Below are positions 15,185 through 23,963 of a stretch of 64,000 nucleotides of DNA, piece after piece. Under the pieces are notes generated by a model that saw only the letters and a list, made by a program, of their open reading frames with translations, was not told the origin of the DNA and searched no databases. Origin of the DNA: an uncultured Pseudomonadota bacterium (GTDB lineage Bacteria > Pseudomonadota > Alphaproteobacteria > Rs-D84). The stretch spans positions 27,927 to 91,926 of the forward strand of contig CADAKI010000001.1 of NCBI GenBank assembly GCA_902788485.1, written 5' to 3'. The position numbers were made by a program, and so were the translations under genes. Within the stretch, counting starts at the first letter, position 1, and each line of letters starts with the position of its first letter.

Positions 15185-16762
15185 TTATTTCAATGCCCCC
15201 TGCACTCTTGATACAACCCTGTTCTCTCCCATAACTTGCATAATCGAATATAAATCTGGTGTATTGGTCCGACCGGTCAGCGCGACACGCAAATTCATCG
15301 CCACATCACCATTTTTGACACCCGCCGCATTTGCAATCGCAACGATTTTATTCCACCAAGTATCTTTATCATCACGAATATCAAATGTTGCCAAAAATTC
15401 ATTTAACAAATCACGATTAAATTCAAATTCTGTATTCGGCGCAAAAAAATCATCCCAGAAATACGCAACCTCGGAAAGTGTTTGCCGCCATGTAATAAAA
15501 TCTTTTCTGATTCGTTTTGGATTATCGCGTTCAATCGATAAAACCGAACGCAAATAATCAACATCGCGAATCTGCGCTATATGCATGGAATCCGCGTATT
15601 TTTCCGCCCACGCGACAACATTTTGCACCAATTCATCAACCGACATTTGTGCAATATTTTCCTTGGCCCACCACTCTAACTTTTTCATATCGAACAACGC
15701 ACCAGACATCGGTATCTTTTTTGGACGAAATTCGTATTCCCAAACAGATTTCACCGCACCCTTTAATTTTGCTTCTTCATATCCAGACGCGATAATATTA
15801 AACAAATATTCCAACACCGCATTGGTTGGCCAACCCGCCGCCAATAAATTTGCAACATTAGATTCCGGGTCATGCCGTTTGGACAACTTGCGTTGCTTAC
15901 CGGTGTCCGCATCGATTGTATCCAATGTCGATGTGTGAATATACAACGGCGGTGTCCACCCCATCATACGAAATAATTGATAATGCAACGGCAATGACGA
16001 CAACCATTCGGCACCACGAACGACATGTGTTGTCCGCATAAAATGGTCATCACATAAATGCGCAAAATGATACGTTGGCAAACCGTCATTTGATTTAATC
16101 AATACTAAATCTTCATTATTTTCTGGGAAAGATATTGAACCACGCACCGCATCTTTACAGAAAATGCGCTGTTCCGGATTACCGGTTGAATACAAACGAA
16201 TCGACGGAACCTCGCCTTTATCCAAATGCGCAACAATCTCGGATTCTGTTAAATCACGGTCACGTGCAAATTCACCATAAATACCGGTTGGAAAACCCGC
16301 CGCCGATTGTTTTGCGCGTATTTCTTCCATATCAGAGGCCGTTAAAAAACAAGGATACGCCAAACCGCGCGCCAATAAATCCGCCGCCACCGAATGGTAA
16401 ATATCTTTGCGTTGTGATTGATAATACGGCCCATATTTTTCATCGTTATTATATTGCAAACCAAATGCCGCCAAAGAATCGACAATAATTTGCACCGCGT
16501 CTTTAACCTCGCGCTTGGTATCTGTATCTTCGATACGCAACATGAAAACACCATGCGATTGTTGTGCCAATTTAGAATTAATTAAAACCTGGTACAAACC
16601 ACCAATATGCATAAAACCGGTCGGACTGGGTGCGAATCGGGTGACAAATGCCCCATCGGGTAAATCGCGTTCCGGGAATTTTTCCTCTAACTCTGCAACA
16701 GTATATTTTGGTTTTACGCCCAAAACTCGTTCAATTAAATCAGGTTTCAATCCATTTCGCAT
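15185..16762 (-). CDS. gltX: Glutamate--tRNA ligase
   Basis: 525 aa. RFAPSPTGFMHIGG (HIGH), KLSKR (KMSKS) and a GluRS-type (not GlnRS) HIGH context. About 40-aa N-terminal extension. Confidence 0.85.
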   Translation of the reverse strand: MRNGLKPDLIERVLGVKPKYTVAELEEKFPERDLPDGAFVTRFAPSPTGFMHIGGLYQVLINSKLAQQSHGVFMLRIEDTDTKREVKDAVQIIVDSLAAFGLQYNNDEKYGPYYQSQRKDIYHSVAADLLARGLAYPCFLTASDMEEIRAKQSAAGFPTGIYGEFARDRDLTESEIVAHLDKGEVPSIRLYSTGNPEQRIFCKDAVRGSISFPENNEDLVLIKSNDGLPTYHFAHLCDDHFMRTTHVVRGAEWLSSLPLHYQLFRMMGWTPPLYIHTSTLDTIDADTGKQRKLSKRHDPESNVANLLAAGWPTNAVLEYLFNIIASGYEEAKLKGAVKSVWEYEFRPKKIPMSGALFDMKKLEWWAKENIAQMSVDELVQNVVAWAEKYADSMHIAQIRDVDYLRSVLSIERDNPKRIRKDFITWRQTLSEVAYFWDDFFAPNTEFEFNRDLLNEFLATFDIRDDKDTWWNKIVAIANAAGVKNGDVAMNLRVALTGRTNTPDLYSIMQVMGENRVVSRVQGALK

Positions 16763-16808
16763 TTTCGTTTTCCTTGTGTTTAGAACAAACCGATTCTATA
16801 CTAATTAT

Positions 16809-17465
16809 ATGGAAAAACAAGAAATAAGAACATTTGGTCGCCGACACGGTAAAAAATTATCGCCACGAAAACAATCGTTATTGGCGAATATTTTGCCGGC
16901 CATTTTGCCAAAAAACATCAAAAACACCGGGAATTTAATTCTGGAAATTGGTTTTGGCAATGGCGAACATGTTCGCGATTTGGCGATTCGCAATCCACAA
17001 TCAATTATTATTGGCGCCGAACCATTTATGAACGGTGTTGCGGCATTATTATCCGCCATCACACACGAATCGAATAATCAAATTATGGACGAATTTAAAA
17101 ACATCTATATTTGGCCGGACGATGTTCGAAAACTTTTACATGAAACAAATCTAGAATTTAACGAAATTTGGGTTTTGCACCCAGACCCCTGGCCCAAGGC
17201 AAAACATGAAAAACGCAGGTTATTAAATTCTGAATTTTTAAATCTAATTGGCGAACATTTAACCGCGGATGGCCAAATCATCATCGGCACCGACCATTGG
17301 GAATATTTCGATTGGATATCACAACAGGTTAAAAAAACCGCGCTATGTGCATCATTTCCGCCAAAATCTAAAATTCATACACGATACGCTGAAAAAAATA
17401 TGGCGGGAACAACCGAACCAAAATATATGATTTTAACAAAATCAATAATTGACCCAAAAATGTAA
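16809..17465 (+). CDS. trmB: tRNA (guanine46-N7)-methyltransferase
   Basis: Start re-assigned to ATG at 16809 (MEKQEIRTFGRRHGKKLSPRKQ...). The 316-aa track ORF overlaps gltX. TrmB motifs LEIGFGNGEH, IGAEPF and HPDPWPKAKHEKRRL. Confidence 0.85.
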   Translation: MEKQEIRTFGRRHGKKLSPRKQSLLANILPAILPKNIKNTGNLILEIGFGNGEHVRDLAIRNPQSIIIGAEPFMNGVAALLSAITHESNNQIMDEFKNIYIWPDDVRKLLHETNLEFNEIWVLHPDPWPKAKHEKRRLLNSEFLNLIGEHLTADGQIIIGTDHWEYFDWISQQVKKTALCASFPPKSKIHTRYAEKNMAGTTEPKYMILTKSIIDPKM

Positions 17466-18116
17466 TTTATCTAATAACTCTGGACGCATTTTCGCAACCA
17501 AACGATATACTTGCTCGGCACGGTCAAAACTGTTGCCTAACATGATATGCAATTCCATATTTTGGTCTGCATCCCATGCATCCAACGCGGCATAGATGCG
17601 CCCAGTAAAATCCGATTTATCCCCCGCATCATTTGTTAACATCAATAACATCGATGTCGCACGCAATTTTTTTAAATTTGTAAAAACATTTTCCCAATCC
17701 AACGGCCAAATTTCAGATATATCAAACCCAACCGAAAAATCTTTATTAAAAAACAAATCATCACGCACCGGCAACATCAAATCTGCGAATCGGTCCAAAT
17801 CATTTAATTTAACAATTACATGCGCACCATCCGCACCATGTTTAAACCCAGATTTTATATCCACCGACATTTTTGCAACCACATCCACCCCGATTGTCGC
17901 CAGATAAAATCGCGGCATGATTTTAACATGAAATTTTTCCACCCACGGCCACAAAATCGGCACATTTTTTGGCACAACCGATAACGCCAAAACATGCGCA
18001 CTCAATGCATTTTCCGCCGCCCCCGCCAATTCAGTCGTATCAACATTATCATCCAACCACCACGACACTTTATCGGCGACATCTTTATTTTCAAAAATAT
18101 CTGTTATATTTATCAT
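17442..18116 (-). CDS. Hypothetical protein (224 aa)
   Basis: Clean ORF convergent with trmB. No motif I can assign with confidence. Confidence 0.35.
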   Translation of the reverse strand: MINITDIFENKDVADKVSWWLDDNVDTTELAGAAENALSAHVLALSVVPKNVPILWPWVEKFHVKIMPRFYLATIGVDVVAKMSVDIKSGFKHGADGAHVIVKLNDLDRFADLMLPVRDDLFFNKDFSVGFDISEIWPLDWENVFTNLKKLRATSMLLMLTNDAGDKSDFTGRIYAALDAWDADQNMELHIMLGNSFDRAEQVYRLVAKMRPELLDKLHFWVNY

Positions 18117-18158
18117 TGTCCTTTTTACTTTATCACAAATATGATATAATTAAAACAA

Positions 18159-19049
18159 ATGAAATTACACGAACGCATAAATTATATTTTATTAGGAACA
18201 CTGTGGTGCATGGCCATGGTGCTGGGGTTGGATTTTTGCCTGAACACGGTATATAACTTTAACATGTTTTCATCCGCGCATTGGGCATATATCGCCAATG
18301 CCCAGGCACAAAACCAACAAATTGCAACCGGATTCTATATTGCGATTACATTGGCAATTACATTGGGCATATTTGGACTGTATATGTTATTCCGCCCGCG
18401 TTTCAGAAAAATAATTTTAACAAAATCGGAACCGACCCCCATGCCCGCGCCCGATATTACACCACCCGCACAAGACGCCGTTTCACAAACACCAACAACA
18501 CCACAAACAATAAACGACCCGGTAATTCAACGCCCACCGCGACTGCACATACAATTACAAAACAACACACATACCACACCGCAAAAAACACCACAACAAA
18601 ACACAAACCAAACAAAAAACACCGAACAACAAAAACCGCGCTATATGCATGAAATCCGGGACATTTTTGAAAAAAACAATTATATCGTTTTGAATCCTAA
18701 AAAAATATCAAACACCGAAATTTCATTGATTGCATTGGGGTCAAACGAAACATTATGGTTGGGCGCATGCGACATATCGCACGAACAAATGGCCGATATA
18801 ATCTTGGCATTCAAATCTGTATTTGGCGAAACATTACAAGATATTGAAATTGATATAAATGCATTTATAATAAACCCGACCGACAACGAACACGTCGATG
18901 CCATTTTAGATTTCACATCTTTGGATGAATTATCAGATGCAATAAATGAAACCCCAAACGATGAACCCGACAATGACAATGAATCTGAAAACATGGACGC
19001 ATTTCGTGGATACATTGAAACGGTTATAACATACCTGGGAAATAAATAA
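18159..19049 (+). CDS. Membrane protein: two N-terminal TMs, Pro/Thr/Gln-rich linker, acidic C-terminal domain (hypothetical)
   Basis: 296 aa. TMs at about 10-30 and 57-79. Linker EPTPMPAPDITPPAQ...TPQKTPQQNTNQTKNTEQQ. C-terminal ~130-aa domain of unknown family. First gene of a four-gene cassette. Confidence 0.45.
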   Translation: MKLHERINYILLGTLWCMAMVLGLDFCLNTVYNFNMFSSAHWAYIANAQAQNQQIATGFYIAITLAITLGIFGLYMLFRPRFRKIILTKSEPTPMPAPDITPPAQDAVSQTPTTPQTINDPVIQRPPRLHIQLQNNTHTTPQKTPQQNTNQTKNTEQQKPRYMHEIRDIFEKNNYIVLNPKKISNTEISLIALGSNETLWLGACDISHEQMADIILAFKSVFGETLQDIEIDINAFIINPTDNEHVDAILDFTSLDELSDAINETPNDEPDNDNESENMDAFRGYIETVITYLGNK

Positions 19050-19555
19050 TGAAAATATCTGAAACGGCGGCAATTGCAAGAATATCAGAACTGGGGATGG
19101 ACGACATGCCACTGGTTGAATATACGCCACACGCAACAAAATTACCACCCGATTGGTTTCATAAATATCATGAATTGGTACACAAATTTATGGAAACATT
19201 GACCGATTGCGCCACAGAATTGGCATTTATGAATTTATCACAAAACGAATTTATGGCATTGGTGACTGGACGCGCATTGCCGCGCAACACTTCAATTCGG
19301 TGGCGCATACCAATCACAATGGGCGGCGAACTATCCATAGATAATATGTTTTTATGCCGAACATTTCCACACTCACACAGATTGGACAGATTTTTAATCG
19401 AACAATCTGGGAACGAAACAATATGGTTACCAAACCCGGCACACGCCATATACATCACCACACACACCGCGGGTGGTGGTGCGGGCGGAAACGCAACATC
19501 GGACCGATTGGCCCAAATGGCCAGTCAGATTGCCAACGATAACTCTTTGGGATAA
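19049..19555 (+). CDS. Hypothetical protein with a colicin-DNase/HNH-like motif
   Basis: 168 aa. Start overlaps the upstream stop (TAATG). RIPITMGGELSIDNMFLCRTFPHSHRLD resembles the colicin E9 DNase HNH core [27 protein letters not shown]. The HH doublet that precedes the motif is W-R here. Confidence 0.4.
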   Translation: MKISETAAIARISELGMDDMPLVEYTPHATKLPPDWFHKYHELVHKFMETLTDCATELAFMNLSQNEFMALVTGRALPRNTSIRWRIPITMGGELSIDNMFLCRTFPHSHRLDRFLIEQSGNETIWLPNPAHAIYITTHTAGGGAGGNATSDRLAQMASQIANDNSLG

Positions 19556-19557
19556 AC

Positions 19558-19992
19558 ATGAACATAGACGAATTTTTATCAAACATAAAAACAAAAGGCG
19601 CACTTGTATGGGGGCCATCAAACGCCCGCGCCATTGAATTTGCAAATTCAAATCTGCAACAAAAAAAATGCGCAATGTTGCCAAATCAGATTATCAGTTT
19701 ATACATGAAAACCGCCGGAATAAACCTGGGTACCGGATACATGTTTGGCCCAAGCGAATTACAAAACGGCGCCAACTTTCCGATACCATCTATTGTACAA
19801 ATCAATGAAGAATTACGCAATATACCGGCATTAAAAAACAAGACATTATTTGCAAGAAATGATTTATTTTGGTTTGCATTTGATGCATTTGGCACATATT
19901 ACATGCTAAATAATTTGAACGGCAATATTTTACGACAATACGACGACGCATACCGCGCATTATACGATTGCATGATGGGAGGAAAATTATAA
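19558..19992 (+). CDS. SUKH (SMI1/KNR4)-like protein, tentative immunity-type protein
   Basis: 144 aa, 2 nt after the previous stop. AIEFANSNLQQKKCAMLPNQIISLYMKTAGINLG fits the SMI1_KNR4 N-terminal signature (ieele..lg..LP..Y..fl...nGg). LFWFAFDAFGTYYMLNNLNGNI fits the central a.d..G..y.ld segment. Confidence 0.4.
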   Translation: MNIDEFLSNIKTKGALVWGPSNARAIEFANSNLQQKKCAMLPNQIISLYMKTAGINLGTGYMFGPSELQNGANFPIPSIVQINEELRNIPALKNKTLFARNDLFWFAFDAFGTYYMLNNLNGNILRQYDDAYRALYDCMMGGKL

Positions 19993-20196
19993 ATGAAAAA
20001 GTTATCTGTATCTTTATCCGGTCACCAAACCAGTATATCACTAGAACCAGAATTTATCGCAGAATTACAGCACATAGCGCGATTTCAAAACAAATCTATT
20101 GCTTCCATAATATCTGATATAGACCAAGCACGCGCACCCAACACAAACCTGTCATCGGCAATACGCGTTTGGATATTAAAAACCGTTCATAAATAA
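19993..20196 (+). CDS. Ribbon-helix-helix (RHH_4 family) protein
   Basis: 67 aa. KKLSVSLSGHQTSISLEPEFIAELQHIARFQNKSIASIISDID matches the RHH_4 consensus (SLSGHxTSxSLEPxFW..L..IA...g.S...LI..ID). Starts immediately after the previous stop. Confidence 0.55.
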   Translation: MKKLSVSLSGHQTSISLEPEFIAELQHIARFQNKSIASIISDIDQARAPNTNLSSAIRVWILKTVHK

Positions 20197-20204
20197 TTTT
20201 TTGA

Positions 20205-22136
20205 TTATTCTTTATCCGCCCTATATGCAATAAATCCGGCAAAAAACGCAATCAAGAAAATTATAAACATCCACGCATCACGTCCCAACATACGATACAG
20301 TGTCATATGCGCACCACGAACCGTTCCATCCAGCACACCAATTTCACCCACCGGTAATTGCGATATAATCGCACCATCGGCGCCGACAAACGCACTGATA
20401 CCGGAATAATTCGCGCGTATAACCGGCACACCCGATTCTATGGCGGCACGACGCACCATATCCAGGTGTTGATATGTCCCCGGCGTTTTTCCAAACCAAG
20501 TATCATTTGTAATATTAATAATCGCGTCAACACCCGACTGTTTTACAACAGCATCAGAAAAAATAATTTCATAACATACCGCCGGCGCAAAAACAAAATC
20601 ACGCCCTGCCTTGCCATCTATGGACAACAATCGTGCACCATCGCCAGCCGTTAAATTTGCCGGTGCAGGCACAAATTTAATCGGTCCATATTCACCAAAT
20701 GGAACCAAATGCGATTTATGATACACATCCGATATCGCACCATCCGCACCCGCCACAACCAAAGAATTAAACACATTACCCGCATCATAAAATGTCGCAC
20801 CAACCGCCACATTTTTATTTAATTCCAACGCCATTGGCAAAACATCATCGCGCAACAACACAAACGGATACGATGTTTCCGGATACACAACAAAATCAAT
20901 ATTTGATACATCACCCGCCAATTCCGTTAAATATTGAACTCTATTTTTTGCCTGATTCAATGCATCCACACGCGATAAAGAAATCTTTTTTTGTTGCGTT
21001 GTTGCGGGCTGAACAATTCGCACATTGATATTACCATCACCCAAACCAGACAATTTTATATTATTATATCCACCAATAATTCCACCCAAACCCAACAACA
21101 CAAAAAACAATATTACCCAACGCAGAACACGATTTTGTCGATTACAAAAATACTGTGCCACAGAGGCAGTTAAACCAATAATAACAAAAGTCAACCCCAA
21201 CGCACCAAACACCGACATAGAATTTGCGATAACCGGATACGGCAACATAATATTCGCGATTGGATTCCACGGAAACCCGGTAAACAACCATTCACGCAAC
21301 CACAAAACAGATGTCCAGGCACCTGCAAACAAAATCGGTTTTGCCCCAGATTTTATGTATATACACGATGTCAATACAAACGGAATTGTAAATATGACTG
21401 CACCGACAATACCGATACCAATCAACCCCGGCACCGTCCATATTGCAAATTGACGCGCCAATTCTGGCACAACATAAATAGAATGCAACGTCCACCAAAA
21501 CATCGATATTGCATACATCGCCCCAAATGGCACCGCACGCCACCACGCACGCCAAAAACCAATTCGTTCCACCCCGGAACACAACAACCAATACGCGGCA
21601 CCGATTGATAATATCGCCAACCACCACAAATTAAACGGTGCAAAACCAAACGCCGCAACACCACCAAACAATGCCCCCAGCGCATATTTCCACCACGGAA
21701 AAGCAACCTCGTCTGCATATGGATTTTTTATCCCCAGTTTTTTTAAAACCTTAATCTCTTTACCTTCCATTACGCGCGCATCTTTATCGGTCAAATGGTC
21801 ATACCCCAACAAATGAAACATACCATGCACAACCATATGTGTGGTATGTTCCGCCACAGAAATATTTGCATCTGCCGCCTGGGCCGCGACCGTATCCAAC
21901 GATATATAAATATCACCCAACAAAATATCGTCATCCAATTCGAACGATAAAACATTTGTCGGTTTATCAATATTGCGATACATCTTGTTCAACGCATGAA
22001 TTTCGTCATCATTGGTCAAGATAATTGAAACCTCGGCATCAGACAATTTTTTACCAACGACCATATTTGCGATTTTTTCAAAATCGATATTATATTTTTT
22101 CCACCGTTTATCGTTATAATTCACACACACTTTCAT
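20205..22136 (-). CDS. YbeY endoribonuclease fused in-frame to apolipoprotein N-acyltransferase Lnt
   Basis: 643-aa single ORF. Residues 1-143 are YbeY (HTTHMVVHGMFHLLGYDH...LKKLGIKNPYADE). About 144 onward is Lnt: 6-7 TMs, then a CN-hydrolase domain with E (YPETSYPF), K (HKSHLVPFGEY) and C (VCYEIIF). The junction codons AAT CCA TAT GCA GAC GAG GTT GCT TTT CCG TGG TGG have no stop. Confidence 0.8.
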   Translation of the reverse strand: MKVCVNYNDKRWKKYNIDFEKIANMVVGKKLSDAEVSIILTNDDEIHALNKMYRNIDKPTNVLSFELDDDILLGDIYISLDTVAAQAADANISVAEHTTHMVVHGMFHLLGYDHLTDKDARVMEGKEIKVLKKLGIKNPYADEVAFPWWKYALGALFGGVAAFGFAPFNLWWLAILSIGAAYWLLCSGVERIGFWRAWWRAVPFGAMYAISMFWWTLHSIYVVPELARQFAIWTVPGLIGIGIVGAVIFTIPFVLTSCIYIKSGAKPILFAGAWTSVLWLREWLFTGFPWNPIANIMLPYPVIANSMSVFGALGLTFVIIGLTASVAQYFCNRQNRVLRWVILFFVLLGLGGIIGGYNNIKLSGLGDGNINVRIVQPATTQQKKISLSRVDALNQAKNRVQYLTELAGDVSNIDFVVYPETSYPFVLLRDDVLPMALELNKNVAVGATFYDAGNVFNSLVVAGADGAISDVYHKSHLVPFGEYGPIKFVPAPANLTAGDGARLLSIDGKAGRDFVFAPAVCYEIIFSDAVVKQSGVDAIINITNDTWFGKTPGTYQHLDMVRRAAIESGVPVIRANYSGISAFVGADGAIISQLPVGEIGVLDGTVRGAHMTLYRMLGRDAWMFIIFLIAFFAGFIAYRADKE

Positions 22137-22154: not shown

Positions 22155-23963
22155 TTAATCTTTATTTCGTCCAAACAAACTTTTAGCAAACCTAGATGTT
22201 TTTGTATTTTTTTGTTGAACCATTTTTGTTGCGTTTTGTAATATTTCGCGCCCACGATTATTCAATTTATTCAATCTTGATTGTGCCACAGCATTTCCTA
22301 ATTGGACTGCTTTTTTATAACTCTTTTTTGCCTTGGCAAATTTACCCATATTTTCATACGCCAACCCCATATTAAAATAAGATGCAGACATCGTTTCATT
22401 ATCACCAATTTCCACCGCCCGTTCAGACATCTCAACAGATTTTTCATAATCACCATAATGGATATACGTAATTGCCAAATCATTAAACAAACTAGGACTG
22501 ACACCTTCTAATTCTATAACCTTGTTAAATCCAGCCAATGCAGAATCCCATTTTTCTTGCTTATAATCCACCAATGCGGCCTCGTAAATTTTTTGACGAC
22601 GATTGGCACCATACAAAAACAAATCCACATCCGCACAATACGCAAATACATCATCGCGATATTTATCAGATTTTTGAACAACCTGGCACACGGTCATACC
22701 ATTTGCCACAACACCATTACAAATAACACTTTTCGCACGTTTCAAAGTAGATTTAGAAAAATCATGTTTCAACTTATCAAAATAGTTATTTGCATACGAC
22801 ACCGCCCCAGATCGCTTGCAATCAATTTGAACACCAAACATGTCATTACAATAATTATCAATATCCAACAACAGCAATATTTCATGCACACGGCGCGCTT
22901 TCAACCCTGGAAAATTTTTCAACCGTTTTACATCGACATCGTCATCAACATTTAATAAATATTTTGCCCACGCCGTTCTGCTATTTGGGTGCGCAACAAT
23001 ATATTCACAAAATTTCTTGCAACACTGTGGTGAATTAAATAATACAGACGCAATCACCGTTAAATCACGCGGGGTCAATTCGATATTTGTTTCCGCCAAA
23101 ACATCACACATATATTTATTAAACGCGCGCCCACCATCCATATAAAAAAACCAACCTGCGATTCCATCATAAACCTCGTTATCGGTTAACGGACGCGGCA
23201 CACCCGATTTCGTTTTGGGATATTTTTTATACATAACGGACGCCTTGGCCCACGATGTTGATGTAAAATCGTACGGATGTTTGGCATCTGGCACATAATA
23301 TAAACCAACAGCCAATGTATTTTTATCGCCATTTATATAATCACAAAACCAATCCGTTCTGTAATTTTCGGTTGAAAACAAAACCGCCTGGGTGTATGCA
23401 AAATTATCCATCACCGCCTGCTTTACAGATTTCCTGTCGGTCATTTTTATTTTTTTACCCAGATTATTTTTGATTTGTTTTCTTTTATCCACAACATCAA
23501 AAGACACTGTATTACCATCTGCAACTGGGCGTGATTTTATATTCACCTGTTGTTGCCGACCGGTTGATATAATATCCTTATCAGATTTTTTATTACCAAC
23601 AATCGCCGACCCGCCACCAATCAGCATTCCCAACATCGCCCACCAAATTGCAACCGCCGACATATTTGGATTTCGTTTTACAAAAGATTGAAATTTTTTT
23701 TCATTACCGTCTTTGTCACGACCAACCTGGATTTCAGATAATTTTTTTTCTAACCGTCGCATCAGTTTATTATCCAATGCCACAACACGCCCAATTTGCA
23801 TCATAAACTCTGTCAGTCCCATACCGACCAACGCCGAACCCTTTAAAATCTTTTTTGTTTTCGTTGGCGCATCCATATCGGCAACATGTTTTATTTTTTC
23901 GTGTACAAATTTAATTGGCTTTTTAACCGCATTACGATATTTTTCTGCCATAATTTCCCCCAT
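22155..23963 (-). CDS. Large membrane-anchored protein with C-terminal TPR repeats (hypothetical)
   Basis: 602 aa. One TM (MSAVAIWWAMLGMLIGGGSAIV), a central ~350-aa Cys-rich domain of unknown family, and at least two C-terminal TPR-like repeats (WDSALAGFNKVIELEG...; YFNMGLAYENMGKFAKAKKSYKKAVQLGN). Confidence 0.5.
   Translation of the reverse strand: MGEIMAEKYRNAVKKPIKFVHEKIKHVADMDAPTKTKKILKGSALVGMGLTEFMMQIGRVVALDNKLMRRLEKKLSEIQVGRDKDGNEKKFQSFVKRNPNMSAVAIWWAMLGMLIGGGSAIVGNKKSDKDIISTGRQQQVNIKSRPVADGNTVSFDVVDKRKQIKNNLGKKIKMTDRKSVKQAVMDNFAYTQAVLFSTENYRTDWFCDYINGDKNTLAVGLYYVPDAKHPYDFTSTSWAKASVMYKKYPKTKSGVPRPLTDNEVYDGIAGWFFYMDGGRAFNKYMCDVLAETNIELTPRDLTVIASVLFNSPQCCKKFCEYIVAHPNSRTAWAKYLLNVDDDVDVKRLKNFPGLKARRVHEILLLLDIDNYCNDMFGVQIDCKRSGAVSYANNYFDKLKHDFSKSTLKRAKSVICNGVVANGMTVCQVVQKSDKYRDDVFAYCADVDLFLYGANRRQKIYEAALVDYKQEKWDSALAGFNKVIELEGVSPSLFNDLAITYIHYGDYEKSVEMSERAVEIGDNETMSASYFNMGLAYENMGKFAKAKKSYKKAVQLGNAVAQSRLNKLNNRGREILQNATKMVQQKNTKTSRFAKSLFGRNKD

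Follow-up and report, generated by a model that had tools for sequence, protein, structure and literature searches.

Polymorphic toxin systems of bacteria are built on secreted multidomain proteins with a C-terminal toxin domain, have variable tips and a patchy distribution among strains, and carry an immunity gene located downstream; for toxins of the HNH fold, the immunity proteins belong most often to the SUKH superfamily (PMC3482391). The LXG toxins encoded by prophages of Bacillus subtilis act in vivo by degrading DNA, antitoxins encoded downstream neutralize them, and one LXG toxin–antitoxin operon of this species encodes YobK together with YobL (PMC8321402). Toxin–immunity pairs are normally fast-evolving and mobile. 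The operon described here, in contrast, appears to carry a pair of this ancestry whose chemistry has been lost and which has been kept under housekeeping-level constraint. It lies in a 64,000-nucleotide (nt) stretch of DNA from an uncultured alphaproteobacterium of the gut order Rs-D84, to which ‘Candidatus Enterousia’ belongs (assembly GCA_902788485.1, contig CADAKI010000001.1, positions 27,927–91,926), hereafter called the window, and consists of four genes: gene 1 encodes a membrane protein, gene 2 a degenerate homologue of HNH toxin domains, gene 3 a protein of SUKH type and gene 4 a ribbon–helix–helix (RHH) protein. Members of Rs-D84 have genomes under 1 Mb from which most biosynthesis is missing, and are likely to depend on a partner (PMC12306168). 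All four genes are under purifying selection, with ratios of nonsynonymous to synonymous substitution rates (dN/dS) of 0.03–0.28 and homologues in the hundreds. Should the reading set out below be true, a bacterial toxin–immunity pair would have been exapted into core cell machinery.

Gene 2 is, as judged by profile comparison, a descendant of an HNH DNase toxin domain. This domain covers residues ∼15–136 and is followed by a tail (137–168); the beta-beta-alpha-metal fold was recovered when looked for, with the beta-beta-alpha element at 81–118. A profile search over 1.84 billion representative proteins yielded 79 relatives of gene 2, and P0384, a distant and ‘long’ relative, served as the query for tblastn. 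It matched 458 plasmids, 433 of them typed as conjugative, in a gene annotated ‘HNH endonuclease’; among the matches listed, the hosts are mostly Enterobacter, Salmonella, Klebsiella, Escherichia and Citrobacter. In both of the plasmid loci read, one from Kosakonia and one on an IncHI2 plasmid of Enterobacter, a gene for a ‘YrhA family protein’ directly follows. The same query matches seven SPbeta-like Bacillus phages, where the domain forms the C-terminus of a 628-residue protein and the next gene encodes 152 residues. When aligned by hhalign, the gene 2 family profile (A5) matches the IncHI2 ‘HNH endonuclease’ with a probability of 98.4 and an E value of 1e-14 over 126 columns, and the phage toxin C-terminus with a probability of 96.8 and an E value of 2.4e-10. 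The window gene 2 on its own as a tblastn query reaches the same plasmid genes (E 0.02).

A preliminary description of the locus had assigned gene 2 by eye to the nuclease toxins and gene 3 to SUKH-type immunity proteins; as a statement about descent this is correct. Searches of Pfam and the PDB gave no HNH match for gene 2, and the ancestry emerged from annotated replicons. No match to gene 2 was found in Pfam, NCBIfam, PADLOC or PHROG, the Pfam HNH models are matched by none of 25 gene 2 members, and a PDB sequence search with the gene 2 profile returned chance matches only. Foldseek against the PDB found nothing significant for gene 2, whose structure scores low. The long form of gene 2 matches two PHROGs, neither with a known function. 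For the colicin E9 DNase, to which the preliminary description had aligned gene 2 by eye, hhalign with an approximate ColE9 DNase sequence showed no similarity to the gene 2 profile; the immunity folds of the colicin E7/E9–Im7/Im9 systems differ as well, Im7 and Im9 being four-helix proteins whereas gene 3 is of SUKH type. A phage origin was also considered, and was set aside when a scan of viral contigs with the long gene 2 forms gave no relatives.

The catalytic residues of the ancestral toxin have been replaced throughout the clade, as residue counts from 200 clade sequences reveal (numbering of the window gene 2). Position 84, which in active HNH toxins holds the first histidine, a metal ligand, is occupied by Arg in 197 sequences, His in two and Lys in one. 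The second histidine, the general base, has given way at position 85 to Phe (107), Trp (49), Leu (33), Met (10) or Cys (1), so that this residue, three ahead of the conserved proline, is missing in 200/200. The histidine of the helix, at position 109, is replaced by Ser in 174 sequences, Ala in 18 and other residues in eight. Hence neither metal-ligand histidine, that of the doublet or that of the alpha helix, was recovered in gene 2. The structural residues have fared differently: P88, G92, G93 and N99 are each unchanged in 200/200, that is, the P-x3-GG loop and the structural Asn of HNH domains are kept. Active relatives read VHHK[IL]PLDDGGTN..DNL.LI.N.PYH, against IRWRIPITMGGELSIDNMFLCRTFPHS in the window gene 2, where the doublet, correctly noticed as altered in the preliminary description, is R84-W85. 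H102, H103 and H127 of the colicins correspond to R84, W85 and S109. The general-base histidine is likewise missing from every distant relative read among the 79, with a hydrophobic residue at the site where examined; the long forms linked to VirD4 retain the other two histidines (H at P-4, HxxxH), but not the general base.

The electrostatics of the pair have changed in parallel. The toxin domain has a charge of −3.6 in the window (−5 for the whole of gene 2) compared with +13 in the phage and +3 in Kosakonia, and the partner has +1.5 in the window compared with −19 in the phage and −11 on the plasmid. Since the charges of gene 2 and its partner are reversed, the usual arrangement, in which a basic nuclease is matched by an acidic immunity protein, is gone. 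Furthermore, the tail at 137–168 carries an essentially invariant GGNATxDR followed by a helix, and is missing from the active toxins. Throughout the clade gene 2 is a stand-alone protein of 166–170 residues without a trafficking domain; an N-terminal extension, variable, of low complexity and of unknown type, occurs only on gene 2 of a sister lineage. These features indicate that gene 2 is very probably not an HNH nuclease.

By fold and profile comparison, gene 3 has a SUKH fold and descends from the immunity protein cognate to the toxin. The SUKH alpha/beta fold was found in gene 3, whose closest solved structure is YobK, and the SUKH-type call of the preliminary description is thereby supported at the level of fold. 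Sequence matches point the same way below the cutoffs: SUKH_6 with an E value of 0.059 (14 bits, cutoff 27), the YrhA family, which is also the best NCBIfam match, with 2e-4 (21 bits, cutoff 55), and SMI1_KNR4 in five of 33 gene 3 members (best E 0.022). The gene 3 profile aligns over its full length with the 152-residue protein downstream of the phage toxin (hhalign, E 2.7e-4). Its comparison with the single IncHI2 YrhA sequence is not significant, and a PDB sequence search with the profile returned chance matches only. Gene 3 adjoins gene 2 in all loci with enough sequence, and a complex between the two proteins probably forms.

Conservation of the operon is that of core genes. A scan for gene 2 relatives, with one genome per GTDB species, was positive in 258 species, all catalogued as ‘Candidatus Enterousia’, Alphaproteobacteria or ‘Rickettsiales’ metagenome-assembled genomes from rumen, faeces and termite gut, and 80 loci were read. 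The order gltX(−), trmB(+), orf224(−), genes 1-2-3-4(+), ybeY-lnt(−), mucR(−) is near-exceptionless in these, with one syntenic copy of the operon per locus. Identity to the window proteins, in ranges that leave out the closest relatives of the window, is 29–43% for gene 1, 53–64% for gene 2, 41–68% for gene 3 and 52–79% for gene 4; the corresponding values are 53–72% for trmB, about 48–59% for ybeY-lnt and 63–81% for gltX. Computed against five close relatives, dN/dS is 0.17–0.28 for gene 1, 0.07–0.12 for gene 2, 0.03–0.19 for gene 3 and 0.08–0.16 for gene 4, compared with 0.07–0.14 for gltX and 0.12–0.21 for trmB and ybeY-lnt. Selection on genes 2 and 3 is thus as purifying as that on the tRNA synthetase gene gltX.

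The operon is almost certainly core and non-mobile. Because it combines vertical synteny with dN/dS at housekeeping level, it does not behave as a polymorphic toxin, a toxin–antitoxin system or a defence island. The preliminary description had named in advance a finding that would tell against a conflict module, namely a syntenic housekeeping operon with an assigned function: the synteny is there in nearly all 80 loci, the function is not. The cassette has no anomaly of base composition, and a mobile island, tried as a candidate, was rejected on this unremarkable composition and the near-universal synteny. One of the Rs-D84 loci (L056) comes from a complete chromosome of 716,531 bp, OZ246409.1. 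This record is titled ‘uncultured Muribaculaceae bacterium’ yet has the full Rs-D84 synteny, and its taxonomic label looks wrong.

Comparison with described systems brings out both the kinship and the departure. The plasmid pairs of HNH endonuclease and YrhA-family protein resemble the window in their homologous toxin domain, in gene order and in the small partner gene that comes next. They keep VHHKIP and PYH, lack the GGNATxDR tail, have an acidic partner and are mobile, whereas the window pair is chromosomal and core, has lost its histidines and is accompanied by gene 1 and an RHH_4 gene. The IncHI2 pair (locus L125, plasmid CP109752.1, 5845–6936) is apparently active; a literature search on YrhA/YhhZ found nothing on the role of such plasmid pairs. 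The SPbeta-like phage toxin has a C-terminal domain homologous to gene 2 and is followed by the protein that aligns with gene 3; it differs in its N-terminal delivery region, in its strongly basic domain paired with an acidic immunity protein, and in being polymorphic, as the seven phage records indicate. In B. subtilis the corresponding prophage harbours yokI-yokJ, and the phage toxin is presumed to be an LXG protein from a reading of its sequence.

As in polymorphic toxin systems, an immunity-type gene stands downstream in the window; the secreted multidomain architecture, variable tips and patchy distribution of these systems are absent (PMC3482391). In type II toxin–antitoxin systems with an RHH antitoxin, the RHH protein neutralizes the toxin directly and its gene adjoins the toxin gene in a small mobile two-gene unit, whereas the RHH_4 gene of the window is the fourth in a core operon, with gene 3 in between. 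The sole precedent found for such a fate of the fold comes from animal teneurins, whose Tox-GHH domain has the HNH fold but is inactive (PMC3482391): this domain is eukaryotic, extracellular and devoid of an immunity partner, whereas the window retains a co-conserved partner derived from an immunity protein. The preliminary description regarded the addition of a membrane component and an RHH regulator to a pair of this type as undescribed, and within the literature searched this appears to hold.

Gene 1 possesses two N-terminal transmembrane helices separated by a loop with the motif FNxFSxxHWxY, predicted to be periplasmic. The helices are followed by RPRFRKI, a variable linker rich in P, T and Q, an RPPRLH motif and an acidic cytoplasmic C-terminal domain (isoelectric point 4.06, charge −20), an architecture that the preliminary description had outlined accurately. 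No family, NERD included, was matched by the window gene 1 in scans of Pfam, NCBIfam, PHROG and the PDB. A chain of homology leads from it to a protein of locus L007 (L007_333, E 2e-14) and from there to one of L091 (L091_352, E 2e-8). A further relative, L098:6430-7491, matches Pfam NERD over profile positions 12–110 of 111 with an E value of 0.001 and 20 bits (cutoff 22.1), and NERD and REase_MTES_1575 are the most recurrent families, each in three of 29 gene 1 members. The gene 1 proteins of the window clade lack a segment of ∼28 residues and have Ser or Ala in place of the Asp of their relatives; because of these losses gene 1, too, looks like a protein of dead-nuclease type. Its C-terminal domain is tentatively interpreted as a trimmed, degenerate NERD or restriction-endonuclease-like domain. 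The sole PADLOC match is a chance-level one to the linker of gene 1, which is of low complexity (E 0.019); a defence system had been considered as a candidate and was dropped for want of a PADLOC model match.

Gene 4 is an RHH_4 protein, as the preliminary description had stated: it matches Pfam PF13467 with an E value of 2.9e-20 and 72.5 bits (cutoff 25) over profile positions 2–66 of 67. Rs-D84 and three deep outgroups, L007, L008 and L117, all keep it after gene 3; in L091, of the lineage linked to VirD4, a protein with two HTH_3 domains stands in its place. A literature search on RHH_4/PF13467 gave nothing usable. The region upstream of gene 1 contains an inverted repeat, TATCA-N6-TGATA, at 18131–18146. 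On the plus strand a perfect extended −10 element, TGATATAAT (18142–18150), ends 8 nt before the ATG of gene 1 and no Shine–Dalgarno sequence is present; this short distance suggests that the gene 1 mRNA is leaderless or nearly so. The minus strand has TGATAAAGT, followed by an AAGGA Shine–Dalgarno sequence and the start of orf224. All 42 nt are nearly invariant over eight close relatives, a conservation that exceeds that of the proteins, and the motif CTTTTTACTTTATCAyAAATATGATAyAAT, followed by 7–8 nt and ATG, is recognizable in nearly all of 78 loci read, TATCA-N6-TGATA being exact in 57 of them. A consensus promoter scan of the region as a whole was not above chance, and no plus-strand terminator was found within the four genes. 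The inverted repeat is a candidate operator for the RHH_4 protein.

Beyond Rs-D84, a set comprising a gene 1-like gene, gene 2, gene 3 and an RHH_4 gene recurs in L007, L008 and the AT-rich L117, where the surrounding genes are quite different, and this recurrence argues that the linkage of the four genes is functional and goes beyond inherited synteny. Loci L091–L110, from the other, sister alphaproteobacterial lineage, are arranged in the order TrbL/VirB6-like(−), two gene 1-like genes, a VirD4/TraG-type coupling protein, long gene 2 and gene 3. The coupling protein has ∼760–780 residues and matches T4SS-DNA_transf with an E value of 5.5e-57. Of 32 metagenome loci, 19 have its gene directly ahead of the long gene 2, and in all 11 that extend far enough this gene is flanked by gene 1 on one side and gene 2 on the other; the coupling proteins of these loci share 50–83% identity. 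In L091 a small lipoprotein is encoded ahead of the coupling protein, and a helix–turn–helix protein after gene 3; L098 also has flagellar genes of FliI/FliJ type. The active IncHI2 pair, with TraG-N and TrhH as neighbours, is likewise part of a conjugative transfer region. By guilt of association, the sole functional lead would be this connection with type IV coupling proteins. VirD4/TraG linkage was not seen in the other Rs-D84 loci read, and a literature search on Rs-D84 together with type IV secretion gave nothing usable. A 454-residue protein upstream in L117 and proteins p412 and p414 of L091 were tried as common members of the module and rejected, as they have no mutual similarity. In L009 (3945–7818, minus strand) two large paralogues of 582 and 704 residues are divergent from a gene 2/gene 3 pair; by eye, their N-termini resemble prepilin-type cleavage and methylation signals (..GYTMMEMIAVLGIF..).

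The reading preferred here is of an exapted, non-catalytic toxin–immunity complex, tethered to the membrane through gene 1 and encoded in a vertically inherited core operon; in our estimate the scales stand level for it. Genes 2 and 3 would form a tight heterodimer, inherited from the toxin–immunity interaction and now non-enzymatic, which gene 1 would anchor on the cytoplasmic side of the inner membrane; gene 4 would repress the compact promoter through TATCA-N6-TGATA. The complex would assist a type IV coupling protein, as its accessory or adaptor, when material is transferred to partner cells or the bacterium interacts with them. This adaptor role is proposed because the triad of genes 1, 2 and 3 shares one operon with a VirD4/TraG ATPase in the sister lineage; it is the most speculative step and, on the present evidence, a somewhat doubtful one. 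Legionella provides an analogy of operation: there DotL, with DotM, DotN and IcmS/W, makes up a type IV coupling complex, and in the sister lineage a VirD4-family ATPase is likewise encoded beside small soluble partners and a membrane protein that has a domain in the cytoplasm. It is rather unlikely, if conceivable, that genes 1–3 amount to a new coupling-protein accessory complex, composed of dead nuclease folds and a former immunity protein, that is near-essential for partner-cell interaction in gut Alphaproteobacteria with genomes of 0.7–1 Mb.

Several observations weigh against the exapted complex. The interaction between genes 2 and 3 is argued from ancestry alone. The NERD assignment falls below threshold in the relatives and has no counterpart in a match for the window gene 1 itself. 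H108, which adjoins the lost helix histidine, is present in 162 of the 200 gene 2 sequences, and residual metal binding may therefore persist. The inverted repeat may be just two back-to-back extended −10 promoters and no operator. Finally, the 64-kb window contains no gene for type IV secretion or for a coupling protein.

A different use of the type IV connection would make gene 2, along with the long MWDWS forms, an exported effector that enters a partner or host cell, gene 3 its cytoplasmic chaperone or immunity protein and gene 1 the receptor that passes the substrate to the coupling protein. VirE1, the chaperone of VirE2, offers an analogy for gene 3, and signals for type IV secretion usually lie at the C-terminus, where gene 2 has gained its conserved tail; the long gene 2, with its variable low-complexity N-terminal extension, begins 10 nt after the VirD4-like gene, and the clade is considered partner-dependent. 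However, effectors and their partners seldom match a tRNA synthetase in slowness of evolution, as gene 2 does (dN/dS 0.07–0.12), the window is without secretion genes, and a dead nuclease lacking a basic DNA-binding surface would be a cargo with no obvious activity in a target cell. An effector is improbable.

Of similarly low probability is a regulatory or DNA-associated complex of the cytoplasm or membrane, independent of secretion, with the adjacency to VirD4 as a secondary trait; one example would be a membrane-tethered switch, with gene 2 sequestered by gene 3 and transcription set by the RHH_4 protein. The coupling protein is indeed missing from the module in Rs-D84, L007, L008, L117 and L113–L120, and all four proteins come from nucleic-acid-related folds (restriction-endonuclease-like, HNH and RHH); yet the C-terminal domain of gene 1 and gene 2 are acidic, unlike DNA binders, and the position of the coupling gene, which 19 loci place directly ahead of the long gene 2 and 11 of which show it flanked by gene 1 and gene 2, maintained over 50–83% identity, speaks for a functional link.

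The conflict module of the preliminary description, be it a live toxin/immunity pair, an addiction module, abortive infection or defence, would have gene 2 kill through DNA damage or some other activity and gene 3 protect against it. Such a module is very unlikely: descent from real toxins and immunity proteins, the tight translational coupling of gene 3 right after gene 2 and an RHH regulator reminiscent of type II toxin–antitoxin systems are outweighed by loss of the catalytic His across the clade and of the basic-toxin/acidic-immunity electrostatics, by gltX-like selection, by single-copy synteny in the loci read with no polymorphism, orphan cassettes or trafficking domains, by the lack of PADLOC matches beyond chance and by the expectation that genomes under 1 Mb shed accessory systems.

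If the exapted complex is real, the operon would represent a clean natural case of bacterial toxin domestication, in an order whose genomes rank among the smallest of the animal gut; the pair would have acquired two further operon partners and an invariant motif of its own. It would also link, by hypothesis, four uncharacterised core proteins and a compact conserved promoter to type IV coupling proteins and to dealings with partner cells.

The layout of the locus is given in Table 1. The four plus-strand reading frames, their coupled junctions and the peptides quoted in the preliminary description are all present in the sequence: gene 1 and gene 2 overlap in TAATG, gene 2 and gene 3 are separated by 2 nt, and no gap is left between gene 3 and gene 4. 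The minus-strand ybeY-lnt fusion downstream was also correctly identified. The description erred upstream, where it had placed trmB as the immediate neighbour on the opposite strand: trmB is on the plus strand and lies beyond orf224, the minus-strand gene that begins 42 nt from gene 1.

Table 1. Features of the four-gene operon and its flanks (positions in the window)
Feature	Position	Strand	Description
trmB	about 16809-17465	+	Upstream of orf224
orf224	17442-18116	−	Acidic 224-aa protein, no detectable family; divergent from gene 1
Intergenic bidirectional promoter region	18117-18158		42 nt between orf224 and gene 1
Gene 1	18159-19049	+	296 aa; inner-membrane protein, N-in/C-in predicted
Gene 2	19049-19555	+	168 aa; catalytically degenerate HNH (His-Me finger) toxin-domain homologue
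Gene 3	19558-19992	+	144 aa; SUKH (SMI1/KNR4)-fold, immunity-protein descendant, presumed partner of gene 2
Gene 4	19993-20196	+	67 aa; RHH_4 ribbon–helix–helix DNA-binding protein, presumed autoregulator
ybeY-lnt fusion	20205-22136	−	Downstream of gene 4

The product of orf224 has no match in Pfam, NCBIfam, the PDB, PADLOC or PHROG. Its gene is found beside gene 1 in all Rs-D84 loci (35–81% identity) and in the outgroup L007 (28%), a homologue occurs near the module in L008 and L121, and dN/dS is 0.20–0.38; orf224 may be a member of the module. The trmB frame as delimited mechanically (16515–17465, plus strand) begins at a TTG within gltX. The true start is likely to be an ATG near 16809 (MEKQEIR...), which gives ∼218 residues, compared with 211–223 in relatives.

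An Rfam scan of the 64-kb window gave no family at gathering score, tRNA included, and GC skew is negative across 12–26 kb of the window. On the other side of the operon, the endoribonuclease YbeY and the apolipoprotein N-acyltransferase Lnt are joined in a single reading frame of 596–703 residues with YbeY, LNT_N and CN_hydrolase domains, a fusion found clade-wide and also in the outgroup (window, L001, L003 and L007). Beside it stands a conserved gene for a TPR protein of 600–650 residues (22155–23963 in the window, minus strand; 9323–11212 in L001). This protein evolves fast, with 22–36% identity in most of the clade, and its L001 homologue has a weak match to Phage_lysozyme.

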